From IMG/VR virus record IMGVR_UViG_3300032092_000008: DNA of 64,000 bases, one strand, 5' to 3'. The position numbers and the translations under genes are program-made. The notes under the pieces are model-generated. The model saw nothing but the letters and a program-made list of their open reading frames with translations. It did no database searches and was not told the origin of the DNA. This document shows, in pieces, positions 222-56,975 of the stretch. Source of the stretch: an uncultured virus (IMG/VR IMGVR_UViG_3300032092_000008) (Duplodnaviria; Heunggongvirae; Uroviricota; Caudoviricetes). How positions within the stretch are numbered: position 1 is the first letter of the stretch; each line of letters opens with the position of its first letter.

Positions 222-1672
222 ATAATTCCTACTTTATCAAATTTTGGTTCTTGTTCTACTTTAAATAATGTAAATCGTTTTCTTGGAGTCCAGTTTGTTA
301 AACATGTATTAATACATTCAATAAAACGCTCACTCATACGACGGGCCGACATCATTGATTCTTTACCATTTACCCACGCATGTCCTTTCAATCCATTTTC
401 TTTTCTTTGGTCTGGCGACATTTCATACCAATATATAATAGCATCTGCTACATCTTCAAATCGAACACGATCATCAAAGATATATGGTGTAGGAATAGAA
501 CCCTGAAGCGATCTATTAGTTGGAAATACTGGTTTTGCCCATGGGCCACATTTAGTATACTTACCATTATGGTTACTAGGAAACTCTGTCGTAAATGCAA
601 TCCAATTACCTGACTCATCTTCGAACCGACAATGATCTTGCAGACCACCAGTTACATTATTAATGATAGGTGTTCCTGCCATCAATGATTCTGCGCCTGA
701 TAAACCAAATCCTTCGTTAGATGCAATATTAACAGTTACATCTGCCATGTTATAATAAAAGTTCATAGTTTTATTATCAACGGCGCGATCACTAAAAATT
801 ACTTTATAATTAGGACAAATAGCATTTTTAACAGCAAATAAATCCGTACCATTTTCATCTACGGGCTGAGTATGCATTAGCAAAGCACATTTATTGGCTT
901 TTTCTTTTGGTAATTTATCACAGAATGATTTATATGCTAGAATTAAATCACCTGGTTGTTTTCTTCTGATATTACGATTGTTCCAGAATACTACAAAGTC
1001 AATATCATTTTTAGACTTAAAATCAGTACTAAATTTTTCAAACTCAGTATACTGTTCATGTTCTTTGTTAATTGGAAAGTATTTTGTTTCATTGATACCA
1101 TGTGGTACATACTGTACTGCCCATTCTTCTTTAGGAAATTTGCGCAACACATTCTTAACAATGTTTTGAGTCTGGCGTGATATATTCATAATTAAATCAC
1201 ATGACTCATAAAATGGTTCATTCCAATGAGGATATGGCAAATCATCCCATATGTTATAATACATTATTGGAATATGTTGACGAACACTATGTTCTAATTG
1301 ATACAACCATCCCCAGAATCTAGGATCTGTAAAATGTAATATAGCATCTGGTTTTTCTGTATTAATCAAATAATTTAATACATTCGCATCACCATATCCA
1401 TTATATGGCATTAATTTAACCGAGGCATCATCGACGCCAGTTTCTTTAGCAACATCCGCAGATAAGTCTAACATTTTTCCTGCATCTGGATGATTAATCG
1501 CTGCTCCTAATTGTACCCAATCAAACTCTTTTACGGTACCTAATACAAACTCTCGAGACATTGTGGCTATACCAGAATGCATTCGAAGGTCGTCGGAAAG
1601 TAAAAGAATTTTCTTTTTCTTAGGTCTGTTTGGATCGATTTTACGTAATTTTGGTAACTGTAACTGATTCAT
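218..1672 (-). CDS. Glycosyltransferase family 4 (GT-B fold)
   Basis: N-terminal HSGIA loop, RNIRRK, and the GT4 donor-binding motif EGFGLSGAESLMAGTPII; AGGAG RBS. Confidence 0.9.
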   Translation of the reverse strand: MNQLQLPKLRKIDPNRPKKKKILLLSDDLRMHSGIATMSREFVLGTVKEFDWVQLGAAINHPDAGKMLDLSADVAKETGVDDASVKLMPYNGYGDANVLNYLINTEKPDAILHFTDPRFWGWLYQLEHSVRQHIPIMYYNIWDDLPYPHWNEPFYESCDLIMNISRQTQNIVKNVLRKFPKEEWAVQYVPHGINETKYFPINKEHEQYTEFEKFSTDFKSKNDIDFVVFWNNRNIRRKQPGDLILAYKSFCDKLPKEKANKCALLMHTQPVDENGTDLFAVKNAICPNYKVIFSDRAVDNKTMNFYYNMADVTVNIASNEGFGLSGAESLMAGTPIINNVTGGLQDHCRFEDESGNWIAFTTEFPSNHNGKYTKCGPWAKPVFPTNRSLQGSIPTPYIFDDRVRFEDVADAIIYWYEMSPDQRKENGLKGHAWVNGKESMMSARRMSERFIECINTCLTNWTPRKRFTLFKVEQEPKFDKVGII

Positions 1673-44707: not shown

Positions 44708-45655
44708 TTACCAACAAACTAAAATAACTAATCCATCGCCTCCATCGCCTCCTGCACCACCGGTTGTACCAGCTCCTCCACCTCCACCTCCACAGCCAAT
44801 TCCACCTTTGCCACCCTTACCACCAGTACCAGAAGCATTAGCTCCTCCACCAGCACCAGGTAATGAAAGGAAAGTTGGTTCAAATAATGTTATACCATCT
44901 TCACCTGCTTGGCCAGTTGCAGCACCTCCTAATAAATTTCTACTCCATACACTTTGACCTGATGTAGTAGGACCTAAAACATTACCACCAGCAGCTGCTA
45001 CGCCGGAAGTTACTCCCCCTCCACCCGCTCCTCCTTGAGGTCTTCCAGCAAATGTGGCGTTTGTGCCTGCTATTAATGTGCCTGCAAATCCAGTTAATAC
45101 AGCAGATATGGATAAATTACTAAACCCAGAAACACCAGGCTGTTGAAGAGTAGTGCTTATTGTATATGCTGTACCTCCGTTACCTCCTGCACCTACGGCG
45201 CCTGCTCGTCCTGATGTAGTTCCCGCCGGAGTAGTACTAGGAAATGCATAATACATTCTTGTAGCAGCTGCAGTAGATCCTACAACAGAATACCACATAC
45301 CAGTTGATAAAGATGGATATCCACCAGCTGTTGCAGCTGCGCCACCAGTCCCTCCTCTAGCAACAGTCATATATAAAACATCAGGCACTAAGTATGCTGG
45401 CTGTATGAATTGTATTATATTTCCAGGAGCACCGCCTCCACCACCGCCTCCTGCTGTTCCAACACCAAAACTATGTCCTCCTCCTCCCCCCGTTCCAGCA
45501 TTAATCAACATGGCATATACAAAATTTATACCTTTAGGCTTTTCCCAACGTTGCATAGATCTAAACGCACTGGGTGATGAGGAAAGATCGGTTGATGTAA
45601 AAATATAAGTTTTAGCATTTCCTTTTGCTATTGGTAAATTAAATGTTCCTATCAT
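44708..45655 (-). CDS. Glycine-rich tail fibre / adhesin (paralog 3)
   Basis: W.KP.G..FV....I.AG.GGGG, polyglycine tracts, C-terminal GG.GGDGLVI. Confidence 0.7.
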   Translation of the reverse strand: MIGTFNLPIAKGNAKTYIFTSTDLSSSPSAFRSMQRWEKPKGINFVYAMLINAGTGGGGGHSFGVGTAGGGGGGGAPGNIIQFIQPAYLVPDVLYMTVARGGTGGAAATAGGYPSLSTGMWYSVVGSTAAATRMYYAFPSTTPAGTTSGRAGAVGAGGNGGTAYTISTTLQQPGVSGFSNLSISAVLTGFAGTLIAGTNATFAGRPQGGAGGGGVTSGVAAAGGNVLGPTTSGQSVWSRNLLGGAATGQAGEDGITLFEPTFLSLPGAGGGANASGTGGKGGKGGIGCGGGGGGAGTTGGAGGDGGDGLVILVCW

Positions 45656-45659
45656 AACT

Positions 45660-46538
45660 TTATCCGCATGTTATTATTACTAGACCATCACCGCCATTGC
45701 CTCCTGCTCCACCTAATCCTGGTCCTACACTTCCTCCTCCGCCACCTGAACCAAAACCTCCCCAACCTCCATTACTTCCACTTATTGTAGTAGACGAACT
45801 TGCACCGGGACCACCAGATGACAAAAATTTTATTAAGTCTTCAACTTTTACTCCATCACTACCAGCTGGTGAGGGTAATATTGCTGAGAAGTATTCGCCA
45901 GCCATAGATACAGACGATCCAGAGCCTACAGTATTAGCGGCATTATTTCCACTTCCACCTCCCCCACCAGTGATTCTATAAGTAGCTGTGGTAGCACCTG
46001 CTCCTGCATTTCCCCCACTTGTGCCAGCCTGACCCGCGATGTATGTTCTTAGTCCTATTTGAGATATAGGTAAACTAGTAGTTGTTAGTACTGCTCCTGC
46101 TGCACCACCAATCCCTCCAGCTGTTCCACCATTACCACCAGCTGCAACACACAAAATATATCCAGCTGTTTGTGCTGGGTAATATCCCGCATATGTTGCT
46201 GTGCCTGCTGCTCCAGCGTTAGCAGTTATAGTATTTGTAGATGCTCCTCCTGCTCCTCCTATTCCAATATTTATATATATAGTATCTGGGATTAAATAGG
46301 CTGGTAAGAATGCTGATGTCATTCCTCCGCTCCCACCTCCTCCACCACCTGTTCTTGCTACTCCGGTTTGCCATATTACTGCGCTACTTCCACCTCCACC
46401 TGCTCCGATTGTTATAATATGTACAAAGTTTATTCCAGGTGGTTTTGACCAAGTTTGAAATCCAGTACTATTTTTATTTCCAGTATAAACCCAAAAACGT
46501 TGATCTTGTTGAGAAGGTAAATGTTGAAATCCGTTCAT
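45660..46538 (-). CDS. Glycine-rich tail fibre / adhesin (paralog 2)
   Basis: Same architecture as its neighbours. Confidence 0.7.
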   Translation of the reverse strand: MNGFQHLPSQQDQRFWVYTGNKNSTGFQTWSKPPGINFVHIITIGAGGGGSSAVIWQTGVARTGGGGGGSGGMTSAFLPAYLIPDTIYINIGIGGAGGASTNTITANAGAAGTATYAGYYPAQTAGYILCVAAGGNGGTAGGIGGAAGAVLTTTSLPISQIGLRTYIAGQAGTSGGNAGAGATTATYRITGGGGGSGNNAANTVGSGSSVSMAGEYFSAILPSPAGSDGVKVEDLIKFLSSGGPGASSSTTISGSNGGWGGFGSGGGGGSVGPGLGGAGGNGGDGLVIITCG

Positions 46539-46539
46539 A

Positions 46540-47490
46540 TTAACTTACTGTTATTATTATTAAACCATCTCCACCTGCTCCACCATATCCACCATTTCCT
46601 AAGCTAGGCAATCCAATAGTATTGAGTGAATTACCTGCTCCTCCGCCGCCACAGCCATATGCTCCTTTACCTCCACTTCCTCCCCATAGGTTTGAATCTG
46701 TAGGTTCAGTACCTCCTCCACCTCCTGTTGCTATAAATGGTTTCCACGAAAAAAATCCATCAGCTCCAGGATTATCGGTTCCAATAGCTCCTCCAGCTAC
46801 AGTTACTGTAATATATGATGATACACTGGCCATATTAATACTACCTCCAGTAGTAACTGTAGATCTACCAGCTCCTCCTGCACCACCTGTTAGTAATCCA
46901 GCATATGTTGGGGATCCTGGAGCTGCAGTACTACCTACCCCTCCTGCTGTTTGAGCTACCGTGTTACCTACTATACCTAACCATTTTAAATCATTTGTAT
47001 TTGCTAGCGTTACAGCGGTTCCAGCTGGAACAGATGTACCATTAGTAGTACCTCCAGTACCACCGCCAGCGGCTGTTTGGCTAGATTGTATTATTACAGA
47101 TCCAGGGTTGATTTCTGGGTAAAGGCATACATAAGATATTTCTCCGTTCCCTCCGTTCCCACCAAAACCTCCAACTGTTGTTGCTCTAGCTCCTCCAGCT
47201 CCGCCAAACCCGACTTGTAAGTATAATGTTTTTGGTAATAGAATAGCTGGTATTGATACTGCTACTAAACCTCCTGGCGCACCACCTCCTGCTCCTTTTC
47301 TAGCAGCACCAGCTGTGACACCTGAACCGCCTCCGCCTCCGCCGCCACCTATTACAGTAAAATGTAAAAATGCTGCATGCTCCGGTACATTCCAAGCTTG
47401 AAAACTTCCAGATGCACTTCCGGAAGCATTGGCATAAAATACAAAAGTATTTTGATCTGATTTGTTTGGCAAATGCCCGAATCCATTCAT
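46540..47490 (-). CDS. Glycine-rich tail fibre / adhesin (paralog 1)
   Basis: Same architecture; MNGF.HLP N-terminus shared with paralog 2. Confidence 0.7.
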   Translation of the reverse strand: MNGFGHLPNKSDQNTFVFYANASGSASGSFQAWNVPEHAAFLHFTVIGGGGGGGGSGVTAGAARKGAGGGAPGGLVAVSIPAILLPKTLYLQVGFGGAGGARATTVGGFGGNGGNGEISYVCLYPEINPGSVIIQSSQTAAGGGTGGTTNGTSVPAGTAVTLANTNDLKWLGIVGNTVAQTAGGVGSTAAPGSPTYAGLLTGGAGGAGRSTVTTGGSINMASVSSYITVTVAGGAIGTDNPGADGFFSWKPFIATGGGGGTEPTDSNLWGGSGGKGAYGCGGGGAGNSLNTIGLPSLGNGGYGGAGGDGLIIITVS

Positions 47491-47945: not shown

Positions 47946-49214
47946 TCAAGGCATTAAGTATCCTAATGAAACTGCATATACTAAACCTAAATTAGTTCCT
48001 CCTCCGCCTCCTCCAGTATTTGTAATGGTAACTGCTCCGGTGGATTGATCGACTGATATACCATCTCCTGCTATAATGCTCGTTACACCACCTGCAACAC
48101 CTGCACTTACTAGTGCGTATGATGCTGTTAGTGCTAGAACGGCATATGAAGCTGTACCTTGCATTCCAAAACTAGAAGTGATACGCGAAACTGTTAATGC
48201 ATCTGTTGCAAAATCAAAATTTAGATTACTACTAACCAATGAAGTATTGCCATCAAAGTCGCCGTTGGGATACACTGGAACATTGTACAGACCAGGAGAT
48301 GTATTTTCAGCGACGTATATTTGGGTAGCACTTGTGGCTGTAGTAGCGTTAGTTGCGGTTCCTTGTAAACTTCCAGTTATTCCAGCTGTTACTCGTAAGC
48401 TTCCTGTAACTTGAGTGCTGCTATTGATGGAAACTATTGTTCCAGTATCGCTTATATTACTATCTCCAATATGTTCTGCATTAGTTGATTTTGGTACTCT
48501 ATTAGTGGTTAGATTAATTTCATTACCTAAATCATTGTAAGTTTGTGGAGATTGTATAAATATTGAGGATGTTATTGCGGCTGTGTTGTGTATAAATACC
48601 CATTGATCATTTACTGAGTCAAATAGTATTGACCCTGATGTTCGTGGTGTTGATCCTGAGTCAATAACTGCTAATCCACCAAACCGGTTTGTCGGGTTAC
48701 TAGTGTTAACTGTGATTAGGTTAGTGCTAATATTTAGTTCGGATGATGATACGTTTGTATATGATGCAGTTCCAAATACAGATAAATTTCCGTTAATTGT
48801 AACGTTTTGGTTAAGTGTGTTTACAAAAGATGCTGTAGATGCAAAAGATGCTGACAATACAGACATTGACGCTGTTTGTGAATTTAAAATAAAAGAAGCA
48901 GTTTGACTATTTACTACATAACTACTAGTTGCTATTTTTATTGCATTAACTTGACTTTGAATAGATGCAGTAAACGTTAACATTGAACCAGAAAAAGAAT
49001 TTAATGCTGATATATCAGTTGTACTTCCACCTCCACCTGAGCCAAACCCAGATGCAGCTGCTGAGGCTGATATGAATGTTGGGGATATGTAGCTAGCAGT
49101 AACAGAACTCTGTACTGAATTATTACCTAATGGCCCGTCGACATTTCCAGCTGTTACATACTGTGCTGATGCGGCATCAATTAATAAGCCGTTTATTTTA
49201 CTTATATTACTCAT
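47946..49214 (-). CDS. Tail fibre protein
   Basis: Ser/Thr/Gly-rich, with TASY/TASF and ITGSL repeats. Confidence 0.65.
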   Translation of the reverse strand: MSNISKINGLLIDAASAQYVTAGNVDGPLGNNSVQSSVTASYISPTFISASAAASGFGSGGGGSTTDISALNSFSGSMLTFTASIQSQVNAIKIATSSYVVNSQTASFILNSQTASMSVLSASFASTASFVNTLNQNVTINGNLSVFGTASYTNVSSSELNISTNLITVNTSNPTNRFGGLAVIDSGSTPRTSGSILFDSVNDQWVFIHNTAAITSSIFIQSPQTYNDLGNEINLTTNRVPKSTNAEHIGDSNISDTGTIVSINSSTQVTGSLRVTAGITGSLQGTATNATTATSATQIYVAENTSPGLYNVPVYPNGDFDGNTSLVSSNLNFDFATDALTVSRITSSFGMQGTASYAVLALTASYALVSAGVAGGVTSIIAGDGISVDQSTGAVTITNTGGGGGGTNLGLVYAVSLGYLMP

Positions 49215-52200
49215 ATTTCATACCAATCATTTGAAGGTCTAAATTTCAATATCCAGTTTTTACTTTGCGTGTCTACATTATTCCAATAACAATGTCCTAC
49301 TACTCTCACAATGCCAGAAGTTGGTATTGTTGTCGACATCATACCAGTTGTATCGCCTTCTAAAAAGTATACAGGTCTTCCGGGTGCAGGCGAATCAATG
49401 TTTTGCACTTCATCAATAACAACATCGCCTTCTAATAACACTGAGTTAGTGCCTAGATAAATTCCTAACAAATATGCTGAGTTACCAGAAGCTGCATCTA
49501 CCGCTCTCCATGTACCGTCAGTTCCTAGATATACTAAATTTCCCACTACACATGATCCATGTATATAACCTGAAAACTCTATTGCTTGACCAGAGTATGT
49601 GTATGCGGTACTAGACAAGCTTTCAGCTTTAACCGTTGTTAGTTCTTGACGTTGATATACTCTTGCACGACTTACTGTATCATCACTCCAATCTAAACCT
49701 AATACACTGCCACTGGTTAGTAGATTTCGATTAGCCCAGTCAACGGCTACTGTATTACCAGCTGCTAATAGTTGTTTATTGACCCAATCTATTGAACGGG
49801 TATCTGGGTGTCCTATTACGCCAGTTTCCCAATTAACTTGAGTAACACCTGCGCTGTTAATTAATTTATACTCTCTGGTATCAATACTGCTGGTAGTGAT
49901 ATGTCCACGAAGTGATCCAGTGAATGATGTTGCTGTTACAGACCCAGAAATATTAACAGAACCAGTTACAATTACATTTTGATTTAATCTATTAACAAAC
50001 GATGCAGTAGCAGCAAATGAGCTACTTACTGCATTTAACACATAACTAGCTGTAGCAGCTGTACCTAATAAAGATCCAGTTATGCCAGCAGTTACTTGCA
50101 AGCTTCCAGTTATCTGAACAATATCACCCGATGCGACTAGTAAATTACTACGGTTAGTATTATTAGACCCGTTACCAATAATAAATGCTGCTATATCAGA
50201 TAATTCAATATTATCTTTACCAATAACAGTTTGATAATTAGCTGACGCTGTAACACGAAATCCAGCAGCTATTGAATACAAACCTTCAGTTCGAGAAAAC
50301 CCGCCAAATGCTAAAGATGCATTTTGTGCTGCATATGTATATGCGCCTAATGCAACCGCAAACGTGCCACTTGCAACTGTATTTGTTCCACCGGCAAAAG
50401 AATAATTGCCTAATGCCGTAGTCTGATTTCCATATGCTACGGAATATAATCCGGAAGCTTCGGATTGGAATCCTAACGCAACAGCACGTGTACCAGTTGC
50501 CGTATTTGATTCTTGTGCAATACTTCCAGAAAATACCGCAGGTCCTATATTAGTAAATGTACTTGAACCAGATATAATAAATGTACCATCAATCCTTGCG
50601 CCGGCAGTATCAACCTTCATAATGGTTTTACGGTTGGTATCATTGGTACCGGCGCCAACAACAAATAATGACTGTGTATCAGCCGTATTATATCTACCTA
50701 TTACAACTTGTTCTTCTTTTGAAGCAATAGTACCTTTACCAAATGCTACAGAATTTTCAGCATCTGCCTTACTTCCAGAACCAGCTGTTAATGAATTGCT
50801 TCCGGATGCTATGGTATCTCGACCAGTTGCTACAGAATTGCTTCCAGATGCTACGGTACTTTTACCAGTTGCTAATGATGATGTACCAGCAGCTATAGTA
50901 TCTTTACCAGTTGCTACAGAATTATCTCCAACGGCCGTTGTTGTATCACCAGTAGTTAATGTTCCAGATCCGACGGCAGTTGTATCTTTACCAGTTGATA
51001 CGGCATTAGTACCAGTTGCAGTAGTAGTATCTCCAATACTAAATCCTTGATCACCTATTGCTGATGTATCCTTACCTCCAGATATTGCATCACTTCCAAC
51101 AGCAACTCCCCCAGTACCTAATACTATTTTACCTACGCGATATAATCGACCATCACTTGGTCGAATACCTACAAACGGCAATGATCCGGTAGTTGGCAAT
51201 CCTGGAAAGTAAACATCTTCTTTGTTATAAAAATCGCCCGATGATGACATATAGTTTAGATCCGGTACTACTTCGAAGAAATTGCTTCGAGCAGCTGTAC
51301 TAGTACCGTTACCTATTATAAATGCGCCATCACCATTTGCTTCAATGTCACTATTATATCGACCTATTGTTAATTGATATGGAGCATTGGCTAAAGTGCC
51401 TAGACCTTCGGCATGACTTCCAACTTTCTTGGCTAATGTATCAACACCTTCAGCATGAGAAGCTTGTGCTGTAGCAGCACTGCCTGATCCTTCAGCATGG
51501 GCATAATTAGCATCAACAGATGTGTTATAACCAATGGCTTGGCTATAAGTTGAATTATTTGACATTGTAACATATTGGCCAAATACACTATTATATTGTC
51601 CACGCACTCTGTTGTTTTGACCATGTACAATACTTTGAGATGCGTAATAATATAATAAAGAACTAGTGCCAGCTAGTATGCCATTGCTATTAAATTGAAT
51701 TTCTGTATCATTGCCTCCAGCTGAGACATTAGCTATATACGAAGCTGTTAATGCATAACTAGCAGATATAACAGAATTTCTTCCATATGGTCCAAACACA
51801 TTAGATGAGGTAACAAAACTAGCTGTCAATGCATTTTGTACATAACTTGCAGTTAAAGCAAAACTTGATGATAGAACTGTCATTGAACTAGTCTGACTAT
51901 TTAGTACAAAACTAGACGTGGCAGTATTCAATACATAATTAGGTGCTAATGATGCAGTTAAAGCAAAACTTGATGTACCGGCAAATCTACTAGCTGCAGA
52001 TCCAGACCAAGCAGTAAATATAGGATCTGATTCTGGGCCTCCACCTCCGCCTAAAGCCGCAGATGCTGTATAATACACTTGGCCAGTAGTTGGGTTATAT
52101 GTTAATACGTTACTTGTACTACCCGTTATTAATCCCTTTGCGTATAAATTTGACGCTGATAATATTAATTGATCACTGCCTGACCAATATAAAACAGCCT

Positions 52201-52651
52201 TATCATTTTCATTATATAAACTTCTACTAGCCCAATTAATTGATGTTTTTGATGTTGCTCCATTAAATGCATTTAATGATTTATGCTCCCAATTGACAGC
52301 TTCTATACCAGCATCGTCTCGCAAATACCTATTTAACCAATTTAACGTTACTTCATCATTGTTAGTAACTAATTCCCCAGTATTCCAATATACAGCTGTG
52401 TTGCCATTATCATACGTTAACAATCTATTAGCCCAATCTGCAGCTACTGATGCATCTGATGAAAATAATTGACGGGCGTCCCATTCAACACTCGGTACTC
52501 CATTTGCGGCAAGTTGATGTAGATCCCAATCCAAAACAGTTTGGCCATTGTAAATTAATTCACGATTGATTGTATTTAAACTACCGGTTGCAATAACCGA
52601 GTTCAGTATGGCATCAGAGCCTGATGTTATGACTTTTTTCCAGCTTGGCAT
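49211..52651 (-). CDS. Large tail fibre / adhesin with YadA-like head repeats
   Basis: 1146 aa; 14-residue A.G..T.A.G.NS repeats, about 15-residue Trp repeats, GAGGAG RBS. Confidence 0.75.
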   Translation of the reverse strand: MPSWKKVITSGSDAILNSVIATGSLNTINRELIYNGQTVLDWDLHQLAANGVPSVEWDARQLFSSDASVAADWANRLLTYDNGNTAVYWNTGELVTNNDEVTLNWLNRYLRDDAGIEAVNWEHKSLNAFNGATSKTSINWASRSLYNENDKAVLYWSGSDQLILSASNLYAKGLITGSTSNVLTYNPTTGQVYYTASAALGGGGGPESDPIFTAWSGSAASRFAGTSSFALTASLAPNYVLNTATSSFVLNSQTSSMTVLSSSFALTASYVQNALTASFVTSSNVFGPYGRNSVISASYALTASYIANVSAGGNDTEIQFNSNGILAGTSSLLYYYASQSIVHGQNNRVRGQYNSVFGQYVTMSNNSTYSQAIGYNTSVDANYAHAEGSGSAATAQASHAEGVDTLAKKVGSHAEGLGTLANAPYQLTIGRYNSDIEANGDGAFIIGNGTSTAARSNFFEVVPDLNYMSSSGDFYNKEDVYFPGLPTTGSLPFVGIRPSDGRLYRVGKIVLGTGGVAVGSDAISGGKDTSAIGDQGFSIGDTTTATGTNAVSTGKDTTAVGSGTLTTGDTTTAVGDNSVATGKDTIAAGTSSLATGKSTVASGSNSVATGRDTIASGSNSLTAGSGSKADAENSVAFGKGTIASKEEQVVIGRYNTADTQSLFVVGAGTNDTNRKTIMKVDTAGARIDGTFIISGSSTFTNIGPAVFSGSIAQESNTATGTRAVALGFQSEASGLYSVAYGNQTTALGNYSFAGGTNTVASGTFAVALGAYTYAAQNASLAFGGFSRTEGLYSIAAGFRVTASANYQTVIGKDNIELSDIAAFIIGNGSNNTNRSNLLVASGDIVQITGSLQVTAGITGSLLGTAATASYVLNAVSSSFAATASFVNRLNQNVIVTGSVNISGSVTATSFTGSLRGHITTSSIDTREYKLINSAGVTQVNWETGVIGHPDTRSIDWVNKQLLAAGNTVAVDWANRNLLTSGSVLGLDWSDDTVSRARVYQRQELTTVKAESLSSTAYTYSGQAIEFSGYIHGSCVVGNLVYLGTDGTWRAVDAASGNSAYLLGIYLGTNSVLLEGDVVIDEVQNIDSPAPGRPVYFLEGDTTGMMSTTIPTSGIVRVVGHCYWNNVDTQSKNWILKFRPSNDWYEI
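50760..51080. repeat. Degenerate 42-bp tandem repeats encoding YadA-like head units
   Basis: Recurrent ccagttgcta...gaatt...ccagatgcta / gtatctttacc units. Confidence 0.75.
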
Positions 52652-52658
52652 GTTCTCC

Positions 52659-52716
52659 TCTACAACGGTTGGTTACATCAACGTGATGCCCACTTCCCTT
52701 ACGGGCCTATGGTAGA
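52659..52716 (-). ncRNA. Candidate cis-regulatory structured RNA in the fibre-gene leader
   Basis: UCUAC/GUAGA closing stem, CCC-GUAA-GGG GNRA hairpin, UGG-GCAUC/GAUGU-AA-CCA stem; the 3' end overlaps the GAGGAG SD. Confidence 0.55.
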
Positions 52717-52735
52717 TTTTATATAAATATGCCGT

Positions 52736-52918
52736 TTACTTTTTTGCAGATGGTTTTGCAGGTGGCGTTTCTGCGGGAGGTTGAGGTGATTGTAGATGTG
52801 TGATTTCGTTAGATAATTTGCTTTGTAGATTGGCTATGAATATAGCATCTTTACCAGAAATTGTGATTATGTCTAATGCGTTGCGTAAAGTTTGCATTTC
52901 AGATAAATTGATTTCCAT
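52736..52918 (-). CDS. Small hypothetical protein (possible fibre chaperone)
   Basis: 60 aa; similar pattern to the neighbour 52928-53155. Confidence 0.55.
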   Translation of the reverse strand: MEINLSEMQTLRNALDIITISGKDAIFIANLQSKLSNEITHLQSPQPPAETPPAKPSAKK

Positions 52919-52927
52919 TGTAACCTT

Positions 52928-53155
52928 TTATTTTTTTGATTGTTCGATATATTGATTTTGTAGTTTAATAATCAAGTTATAAAACATTTCAACTTGATAT
53001 CCTTTTAAATTGGCATCTCGTAAATACTGTAACAGGAAGTCTAAATCTTCAATTGATAGATTATTATCAATAGATGATGATTTAATAACGTTACCGGTGG
53101 TATCTGTTATTATTGGTATTGGTTCTTTACGTAAAAATTTGTCTGCTAATCCCAT
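52928..53155 (-). CDS. Small hypothetical protein (possible fibre chaperone)
   Basis: 75 aa, helical C-terminal half. Confidence 0.55.
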   Translation of the reverse strand: MGLADKFLRKEPIPIITDTTGNVIKSSSIDNNLSIEDLDFLLQYLRDANLKGYQVEMFYNLIIKLQNQYIEQSKK

Positions 53156-54959: not shown

Positions 54960-56975
54960 TTATGTTAAGGATATACTTGAAATATGTCCAGTCCATGACG
55001 ATCCTGCGGTAATACGTATTAGTACATATTGATTTGCTGCAGCATTTTGGGTTACAAAATTTATTGCACCAGCTAAATTAGTACTATTTGTACTAATACC
55101 TTGGCCGCATCCATATGTATTATCGGTATCAGTTGGATATGCATTTGTAGACCCTGGGTAACCTACAATGACATCTCTCCAAGCTGTTGTACCGGGAATC
55201 TTTGCCGATACTTTAACATTATTTGATAATACCCCAGATTCTGCGACAAATGATAATCCACTACCGGCAATTGCAATTGTAAATATAGCCTTAACACTAG
55301 CACCGTTCTGGAAAGCACGTAAATAATAACGTGTTCCACTGGCTGCGCTGTAATCTGGGTGTGTTACGAAGTTTGGATTAGGAAATAAAGCTCCTATACC
55401 GCTAATATTACCATTTGTTGCTGCGGCGCCAAATGCCTTTGTTGGATATGTTAAACGACCTACTGGCGAACCTCCTGCTGCCAACCAAACTGCTAATTCA
55501 TCTGTTTGATCACCGGCTACTAAACTTGATGCACTTGGATATGCATTTAGGTATGTAGTCACATTTCCTTGGTCATTATATGGGCTAATATCATATGCTA
55601 GTCGATAATTTTCTCCAGTAAATGTTTCTGATGTCGTAGTGTTTGCATTGGAATGTCTATTAACAATGACTTTTGGTGTCGTTACTGCAGATGAATTATT
55701 TGTTTTCCCATGTGCATTTGTAACGGTAAATCTTGATGATAAAGTGGAACCATTAATGGCTTGGCTACTATTAACACTATGTAAACTGGCAACTTGTAAA
55801 CTACTAGATGGCGATGTCGGAGTAGTAATTGTAACTGCCATGGCTGTTAATATGGTGGTTGCTGCTCCACCTAATTGAAATGTATTAAATCCTTGAGTAG
55901 TACTATTTGCGCTTATTGCTGTAGTAGCAAAAGTATTACGATAGTAATTATCTATAGATGATGTAAATGTATAATCAAATTTACTGCAATATGGTATCCC
56001 AGATAGATACACTATACTACCAGTATCAATTGATGCCGATGTAGGTGTTGCTATTGTATACGGAAAAGTTGTATTACCTGATACTGCTATTGGATCATAT
56101 ACCCAATCTATATATGCAGACGATACCCCTAATGATGATGATACAACCGCATAATTAGAACCACTTCTCCACATGGATGTTGGTATTGATACTGTACCGG
56201 TCCTATGTTGCCATAATGTAAATTCTTGACCAGAACTAATAAATGAACCAGTTTGTGCTTTAGCAAGTGTTATAGTAGCAGGGCCAGCGCCTATTGTAGC
56301 AGTGGTTACAGCATTATTATCCGGTGGCGTATAACTATAGTTAACACCATTAACGTTTAATGTATATGTTTCACCAACACCAACACTATCAGTAACTCTA
56401 AATGCATTATTTGGATAATTAGTATATGTACCAGTATTACCGGCAACATCATTATTTAGCGTTATAATAACTGGATTAACACTTGATGCTATGACTCCTA
56501 AACGTCTAAGATTACTAACGTCGCCAGTGGTTTGTGTATAATCTGTTGTAAATGCAGTAATATCAGCAAACCCCGTAGTACTTCCAGACATTGGCGAATA
56601 TGATGCTGTTGTGTTAGTAGCATCAAATGATAATCGTTGACTATTTGCCATAGTACTATTACTAGTAGCGTCTATATAATCTAATAAAGGAGCTTGTAAC
56701 GGAGCTAGTCCTTTCAATACTTCATTGAATCTATCAACCGCGGTACCAACTGGTGTACTTGTTGTAAAGTCAGTGAACAATCCGTCGTTATACGTTCCAT
56801 CTTCGGCCGCTCCGATATTAAAGTTACCAACAAAACTTCCAGAGAATGATCCTGATAGTACTGTAGTCGCGGCTAGATTAGTTACTTGTTGTAATGGTTG
56901 GCCTGGTGCTCTATATAATGATGCACTTAATTCTGCTACACTACCCGATACTATGACTTTTTTCCATGTTGCCAT
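54960..56975 (-). CDS. Virion structural protein
   Basis: MATWKKVIVSGS N-terminus (shared with 49211-52651), IG..EDG.Y.DGL.DF module, beta-rich. Confidence 0.6.
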   Translation of the reverse strand: MATWKKVIVSGSVAELSASLYRAPGQPLQQVTNLAATTVLSGSFSGSFVGNFNIGAAEDGTYNDGLFTDFTTSTPVGTAVDRFNEVLKGLAPLQAPLLDYIDATSNSTMANSQRLSFDATNTTASYSPMSGSTTGFADITAFTTDYTQTTGDVSNLRRLGVIASSVNPVIITLNNDVAGNTGTYTNYPNNAFRVTDSVGVGETYTLNVNGVNYSYTPPDNNAVTTATIGAGPATITLAKAQTGSFISSGQEFTLWQHRTGTVSIPTSMWRSGSNYAVVSSSLGVSSAYIDWVYDPIAVSGNTTFPYTIATPTSASIDTGSIVYLSGIPYCSKFDYTFTSSIDNYYRNTFATTAISANSTTQGFNTFQLGGAATTILTAMAVTITTPTSPSSSLQVASLHSVNSSQAINGSTLSSRFTVTNAHGKTNNSSAVTTPKVIVNRHSNANTTTSETFTGENYRLAYDISPYNDQGNVTTYLNAYPSASSLVAGDQTDELAVWLAAGGSPVGRLTYPTKAFGAAATNGNISGIGALFPNPNFVTHPDYSAASGTRYYLRAFQNGASVKAIFTIAIAGSGLSFVAESGVLSNNVKVSAKIPGTTAWRDVIVGYPGSTNAYPTDTDNTYGCGQGISTNSTNLAGAINFVTQNAAANQYVLIRITAGSSWTGHISSISLT

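Follow-up and report, generated by a model that had tools for sequence, protein, structure and literature searches.

A conserved three-way-junction RNA before a virion fibre gene of T4-type phages, a candidate translational OFF switch

Why does a compact, G+C-rich RNA fold stand directly before the largest fibre gene of a phage, and what might it do there? The locus lies in the window, the whole 64,000-nucleotide stretch that was analysed (IMG/VR record IMGVR_UViG_3300032092_000008), which is part of a T4-type phage with a major head protein at 59983-58277 and a tail sheath at 39955-37838. The nearest cultured capsid proteins belong to Microcystis phage Mel-JY01 (60%) and Flavobacterium phage immuto_2-6A (57%). 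Read along the minus strand, the features at issue are the following.

54960..56975, minus: paralogous fibre-like gene, starting MATWKKVIVSGS, without the RNA and serving as internal control
52928..53155, minus: small gene A, 75 aa, predicted helical hairpin
52736..52918, minus: small gene B, 60 aa, no known family, related to A
52722..52729, minus: promoter-like motif TATTTATA, 6 bases upstream of the element, putative late promoter
52659..52716, minus: whole three-way-junction leader RNA, from RNAfold and the consensus fold; 65.7 bits with model R1, whose training set includes the window
52709..52716, minus: 5' strand of P1a, of variable sequence, partner 52666-52659, with one C-U mismatch in the window
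52706..52708, minus: one-base bulge (52708) and 5' strand of P1b, GG, partner CC at 52668-52667
52696..52705, minus: hairpin P2, 3 bp and a GUAA loop in the window, 8-24 nt among relatives
52693..52695, minus: junction strand J2/3, AAG, with G as first base in two long-leader variants
52670..52692, minus: P3, with UGG/CCA, a two-base bulge, R-U and C-G pairs and a variable cap hairpin
52659..52669, minus: junction A (52669), 3' CC of P1b and 3' strand of P1a, overlapping the Shine-Dalgarno-like motif by two bases
52655..52660, minus: Shine-Dalgarno-like GAGGAG, present in the window and not conserved family-wide
49211..52651, minus: putatively controlled gene, 1146 aa, fibre/adhesin-like, starting MPSWKKVITSGS, with YadA-head repeats, the longest ORF of the window

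The original prediction described a G+C-rich island that forms a three-way junction with a GNRA hairpin, its closing stem covering the start of GAGGAG, and read it as a translational switch recalling c-di-GMP-II riboswitches. The letters it gave for the element were correct as written. RNAfold returned the same junction as both the minimum-energy and the centroid fold of the 58-base, three-armed RNA (52716-52659, minus strand), and G+C was 51% over 57 bases of the element compared with about 35% across the window. In this copy, P1 has a bulged A besides its mismatch and pairs the first two bases of GAGGAG (52660-52659), P2 is capped by the GUAA tetraloop, and P3 carries the two-base bulge. We note that the fold is not unusual for a single sequence, as 46 of 200 shuffles of the element alone folded equally well (z = -0.71, RNAfold), and z was 0.02 with flanks included. 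It is therefore conservation and covariation in relatives, not stability, that set the element above chance.

For a set selected independently of the RNA, IMG/VR was scanned on the first codons of the fibre gene only. Among the 115 distinct leaders chosen in this way, the window and immuto_2-6A included, 108 parsed as the junction, and the other seven were three long leaders with the RNA further up, two genes in the upstream paralog position and two unrelated proteins. A 17-base core pattern gave at least 120 matches in IMG/VR; among the matches listed, 101 had an MP[NS][WY] start just downstream, five were long-leader variants and 14 were chance matches without the remainder of the element. 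We aligned 76 of 103 distinct elements, with near-duplicates removed by eye, and scored 18 pairs. Across the alignment 95.3% of cells were paired, compared with 82.5% after shuffling and 28–51% in slid registers, and 13 of the 18 pairs changed compensatorily on both sides. RNAalifold, unprompted, predicted the same three-way junction, with double changes in 11 of 17 pairs. Core pairs covaried as well, from G-C to A-U, in P3 (UGG/CCA to UAG/CUA, 84 of 295 elements) and in P1b (GG/CC to GA/UC, 4 of 295). Double changes recurred within well-supported (starred) clades of a protein-A tree built on 64 columns and mostly unresolved. The original prediction, which had proposed such a covariation test on leaders of fibre-gene relatives and staked itself on conservation and covariation in related phages, came through clearly on both.

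The consensus runs from a variable P1a through a one-base bulge, a two-pair P1b, P2 (8–24 nt), AAG, and P3 with its two-base bulge and variable cap to a single A. Paired and unpaired core bases are near-invariant, while the arms vary freely in sequence and length. On the sense strand, P3b had G-U in 91 and A-U in 11 of 103 elements, P1a had 46 U-G and 51 U-A pairs, and a GNRA loop closed all 12 of the shortest P2 arms. The sense-strand G-U pairs and GNRA loops indicate that the structure acts as RNA on the coding strand. The predicted GNRA hairpin was thus borne out in the window but not as a conserved feature of the family.

Pooled scans, including the core-pattern scan, yielded 295 distinct elements from 497 loci. 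A looser metagenome scan recovered 26 true elements among 120 loci, all in the same fibre-gene context. The cultured Flavobacterium phage immuto_2-6A carries the element before 'putative tail fiber-like protein' 219 (69.7 bits), with compensatory changes in P1b and P2. One strong copy was present in each of five records, three of them IMG/VR records at least 90% complete, and none was found in Microcystis phage Mel-JY01. An exact-pattern scan of 185,579 prokaryote genomes, which could miss distant variants, gave 36 matches, of which 33 scored as chance and three were true. The three lie on 8–23 kb MAG contigs with the phage order of small gene, RNA and fibre gene. These GTDB contigs (L379, L391, L398) are labelled Pelagibacter, Bifidobacterium and Flavobacteriales, carry the phage fibre module and are probably phage contigs binned into MAGs. 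The best chance match (L387, 24 bits) was rejected as a bacterial copy; it has no P2 and sits where a gene ends, in a G+C-rich genome. On these sequence comparisons, the element is a conserved, covarying RNA family that is single-copy and phage-restricted in the scans made.

The gene behind the RNA is constant only at its beginning. Fibre sequence diverges past about 20 residues, while the leader and first codons stay the same, and a structure of residues 1–300 predicted without alignment was unusable (pLDDT 32). Among leaders of MA-type paralogs with enough flank, the element was found in 0 of 109, and in tandem pairs of MPxWKK genes (L146/L147, L201/L202) the RNA stood only at the downstream gene, after the small genes. 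Of 69 loci with sufficient flank, 66 have gene A, gene B or both upstream of the RNA. In five contigs A/B stand directly before RNA-less MA-type fibre genes, which start Met-Ala. Protein A is predicted as a helical hairpin (pLDDT 73); it had no family match and no PDB match at E<=0.001, and its atlas matches were unnamed. Related helical hairpins beside fibre genes, A and B are possible fibre chaperones or adaptors.

The motif TATTTAT occurred 19 times on the coding strand versus three times on the other in 3991 intergenic bases, and is found before many structural genes. Its reverse complement is the T4 late promoter motif as given in PMC3014915. A scan for sigma-70 promoters and terminators stayed at chance level, and no tRNA genes were found. 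Below, P2-loop and P3-loop members are those in which the named arm has a loop complementary to the start region. A promoter-like motif was present in 204 of 219 ordinary and P3-loop members, mostly 11–18 bases above P1b and never closer than 10, which makes the RNA probably the 5' end of a late transcript from the putative start site. The motif was missing in 74 of 76 P2-loop members. In 65 of 70 promoter-less P2-loop members the upstream gene stops 4–10 bases before P1b, which suggests translational coupling to that gene. In a single RNA run, with 10% of words, relatives' contigs reached into the small gene upstream and the start of the gene, but neither a start site nor strand or level could be read from them.

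Three leader layouts bear on how the fold might act on translation. In the simplest, P1 lies over the ribosome site. A Shine-Dalgarno-like motif was present in 95 of 289 short leaders, and P1 overlapped it in 80 of these 95, the window included. The occlusion of GAGGAG by the closing stem therefore holds for the window and for these 80 leaders, but as one of several layouts rather than as a family rule. The distance from the end of P1 to the AUG had medians of 9, 12 and 15 bases in three leader classes. We modelled the cost of opening positions -15 to +15 with the junction enforced and with P1b forbidden. Opening was predicted to be dearer with the junction in 127 of 150 ordinary members, in 70 of 75 P2-loop members and in the window (8.5 versus 4.9 kcal/mol), a difference that in short leaders is partly built in, since the footprint includes P1. 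For the P3-loop class, the sign in the nested model was the opposite, with the junction dearer in only 9 of 64. Predicted junction occupancy had medians of 0.09–0.58.

In the second layout, an arm loop is complementary to the start. A GG(C/U) loop motif, the complement of AUGCC, was present in 75 of 87 long P2 arms and in all 64 long P3 caps, classes that are defined by the motif itself and may each be one or two clades. Bases beyond the motif followed the loop: base +6 was a purine in 75 of 75 members where the loop has a matching U (57 of 64 in the other class), and base -1 was U in 60 of the 64 whose loop offers a matching A (3 of 75 in the other class). The start region was the strictly best downstream partner of the loop in 53 of 76 P2-loop and 55 of 63 P3-loop members, compared with 4 of 147 in the remainder. 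Loop variants were mostly wobble-compatible, with three loops breaking the predicted pair, and no double change is possible for this pairing because the AUG is invariant. The P3-loop class is exactly the class whose P1 misses the footprint (the 9 of 64 above) and also has longer spacers; its OFF polarity would rest on a pseudoknot beyond the model's scoring. The window copy has no loop complement to AUGCC. The idea that codon 2 pairs with the 5' bulge base was dropped, as there was no covariation. Met-Pro follows the RNA in 289 of 289 short leaders (one with GUG; three parser artefacts settled by eye), and the codon of Pro2 was CCA or CCG in 101 of 103, compared with 160 of 346 downstream.

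The third layout is found in long leaders. One clade comprises seven distinct leaders, 86% identical and counted as one observation, with about 105 extra bases that include a strand complementing the junction on its 5' side. The unconstrained fold of all seven was predicted to be a rod without the junction (P<=0.002), and enforcing the junction raised the modelled opening cost from 2.7–4.7 to 5.8–10.3 kcal/mol. The enforced junction would free the anti-junction strand to pair across the start region, and the competing folds were modelled as about 4–7 kcal/mol apart. An unrelated long leader (L558) showed the same behaviour in the models, less cleanly (3.5 to 6.6 kcal/mol), so that in all eight long leaders the forced junction is predicted to bury the start by about 2–6 kcal/mol more. 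With shuffled inserts, both criteria were seen together in 4 of 120 controls and junction loss alone in 39 of 120. In the middle of the long leader (L404–L413), the insert has a hairpin of its own, flanked by the two switching strands and variable in loop and arms.

In the models, the three different layouts agree on a consistent reading in which the folded junction is the translation-OFF state. Our preferred interpretation, drawn from sequence and modelling and given about even chances, is that the element is an operator that acts in cis as a translational OFF switch on a single fibre gene in Immutovirus-like phages of the T4 type, with a phage protein as binder. Folding of the junction would make the start region harder to open, by laying P1 over the ribosome site, by pairing an arm loop with AUGCC in sub-families, or by freeing a sequestering strand that pairs across the start in long leaders. 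A near-invariant core, free arms and marginal stability imply some binder, and a trans-acting one could read the invariant core, hold the marginally stable junction folded and so repress. We favour a protein because the RNA keeps to a single phage lineage and a single virion gene, with no chromosomal copy in the scan. The binder may be a phage-made virion-assembly protein, either unassembled fibre or an assembly partner, so that fibre production would keep pace with assembly. In the sub-family without the promoter motif, a ribosome that terminates on the small gene upstream may melt P1, coupling the two genes.

Among candidate binders, the fibre N-terminus is disfavoured by the presence of the WKK N-terminus in the unregulated paralog. 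Protein A is a weak candidate, since Mel-JY01 has it after another structural gene, without the RNA and without a WKK gene behind it. A match to RegA was sought in five records and none was found, in a search without positive control. The T4 gp32 and gp43 translational operators set a precedent for a protein-bound phage leader, and the gene 32 pseudoknot, the gene 43 hairpin and the leaders of e, soc, 49 and I-TevI are likewise phage mRNA leader folds that block initiation (PMC3014915). Those serve replication or lysis genes, whereas here a covarying junction with several predicted platforms stands on a virion fibre gene. Autogenous control of the P22 scaffolding protein is a precedent for a virion-assembly protein that controls its own synthesis (PMC5529062). 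That protein is a capsid scaffold rather than a fibre. We know of no RNA structure that P22 scaffold control and the phage fibre element have in common.

Comparison with known RNA families bears on the ligand suggested by the original prediction. Its proposed Infernal search against Rfam, run on the window and 22 homologous loci (16 + 6), matched no family to the element at gathering and E-value thresholds. The c-di-GMP-II model (RF01786) had no match at the element in the same sequences, and its best score in five phage records was 13 bits, elsewhere, compared with 53.5. The c-di-GMP-II riboswitch needs a kink-turn as well as a pseudoknot (PMC9495366). The phage element resembles it in its 5' leader position and in a loop pseudoknot that is possible in some sub-families, but this candidate pseudoknot pairs with the start codon, and the consensus holds only a one-base and a two-base bulge, with no tandem G-A internal loop of a kink-turn. 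Neither is there a conserved aptamer pseudoknot: loops are variable and often plain tetraloops, with a start-codon complement in only 139 of 286 members. No GGDEF gene was found in the five phage records. With no model match, no kink-turn and no conserved pseudoknot, c-di-GMP-II identity is not supported; the original prediction keeps a conserved cis RNA placed for translational control, with switch-like folds in long-leader models, and loses the c-di-GMP-II kinship.

Glutamine-I (glnA, RF01739) is a closer look-alike than c-di-GMP-II, yet the phage element is no member. Glutamine-I is a three-way junction of about 60 nt in 5' UTRs that is also predicted in T4-like phages (PMC6698751, PMC9004378), and a glutamine-I construct has similar letters on the 5' side of P2 and after P2 (PMC5393176). 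Its pocket is formed by invariant terminal C-G and G-C pairs (PMC6698751). The phage element has no conserved C1-G59/G2-C58 pocket, as its P1a pairs are A-U rich and variable, and loop E of P3 is absent, with 0 of 295 elements holding both strands and the position covarying from G-C to A-U. The RF01739 model matched 0 of five records at E<=10, while its positive control was detected. Loop E absence in 295 of 295, the variable P1a and the lack of a model match rule out glutamine-I identity. A likeness to helix 8 of SRP and to the S15/L18 sites of ribosomal proteins was dropped, as P1b covaries as a helix and no such model matched; among Rfam ribozymes and ribosomal-protein leaders, none matched the element. 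The GP20-a and GP20-b motifs (RF02991, RF03003) are also candidate cis RNAs immediately 5' of one phage gene (PMC10690425), but of a different gene, and the phage element has no Rfam match to either.

What was found agrees both with a riboswitch, as a conserved structured sensor in a 5' leader, and with an operator, as a structure that sits at, or covers, one gene's initiation region. The alternative that survives best, though we think it unlikely, is a true riboswitch, in which a host metabolite, nucleotide signal or ion would bind the junction core and turn fibre translation OFF, so that adhesin output would follow the state of the host. Riboswitches usually combine one core with several expression platforms. 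Several are predicted for the element, and its compact junction, invariant unpaired bases, interchangeable arms and long-leader folds modelled as about 4–7 kcal/mol apart would all suit a riboswitch, as would its glutamine-I-like topology and letters (PMC5393176) and the glutamine riboswitches predicted in marine T4-like phages (PMC9004378). Set against this are its restriction to one structural gene, the lack of an Rfam riboswitch match or of a GGDEF gene, and the lack of a chromosomal copy before a metabolic gene in one exact-pattern scan that distant variants could escape. Stated in full, and unlikely in the same degree, this would be a phage-confined new riboswitch class, through which a small host molecule turns off the host-recognition fibre via at least three separately evolved platforms.

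We consider it quite unlikely that the element works without a ligand, as a static damper and 5' stabiliser of the late transcript, or as a coupling or timing structure like that of T4 gene e, opened by an upstream ribosome or by the position of the transcription start. Such a role would fit the promoter-less class, where P1 begins at the upstream stop, and the RNA-less relatives in which the start of the fibre gene is coupled directly to A/B. Folds of this kind serve T4 e, soc, 49 and I-TevI (PMC3014915), and mRNA structure tunes translation in Flavobacterium (PMC6847099). It would leave unexplained why paired and unpaired core bases are near-invariant amid diverging neighbours. The anti-junction strand evolved in long leaders also implies that something must tip the balance, and, unlike gene e, a promoter motif at least 10–11 bases above P1b would keep most of P1 in the late RNA, given the putative start site.

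Improbable, next in order, is that a host factor, whether protein or machine (ribosomal protein, nuclease or chaperone), reads the core, or that the RNA has chemistry or a virion role of its own (self-cleavage, a processing signal or an assembly RNA). A core that is invariant across Shine-Dalgarno-using and Shine-Dalgarno-free leaders would fit a universal host factor, and the 5'-terminal position would suit processing, but no Rfam ribozyme or ribosomal-protein leader matched, and the fixed position and complementarity to the start favour cis translational control. A role at the DNA level, for example as a conserved anchor for recombination that swaps fibre genes, would agree with constant leaders and first codons before fibres that diverge after about 20 residues and with homing endonuclease genes inserted at the same place, but is very improbable given the sense-strand G-U pairs, the GNRA loops in 12 of 12 shortest P2 arms and the varying arm lengths.

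Judged from sequence and folding models, then, the element is an uncatalogued cis-regulatory RNA family, in no known family and predicted to act like a translational OFF riboswitch or operator. It is not in Rfam 15, and literature searches found neither the motif nor a printed precedent for virion fibre translation controlled by a dedicated, deeply conserved RNA. It may be present, unnamed, among the 8,495 IMG/VR candidate RNAs of Fremin et al. 2023 (PMC10690425) or in the Weinberg 2017 supplement. If the binder is a protein, the element would represent a new feedback loop between fibre synthesis and assembly; if it is a metabolite, a new riboswitch class inside a structural operon, with the virion surface set by the metabolic state of the infected cell. 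The family is large, its core is sharply defined, and its natural variants offer three ready-made candidate switches, which are testable now in the cultured pair of immuto_2-6A and Flavobacterium sp. LMO8.

Additional reading frames were seen at the locus and near it. Three HNH homing-endonuclease genes, at L003:118-360 (-), L462:3-278 (-) and L566:374-574 (+), have inserted downstream of the RNA and ahead of the fibre gene, and each begins with the first three codons of the fibre fused to it; the endonuclease frames of L003 and L566 overlap at their ends with the fibre start. Retention of these codons may reflect the insertion site or a need to keep AUGCC. At ~240-300 (+) of L743, a 17-codon upstream ORF stands between the RNA and the fibre start, which it overlaps; only here, among the cases seen, does something other than Met-Pro begin at the first AUG past the RNA. 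At 44708-47490 of the window, downstream of the fibre genes, are three tandem glycine-rich proteins of about 300 aa, with GGGGG/GxGG repeats and a common C-terminal GGDGL.
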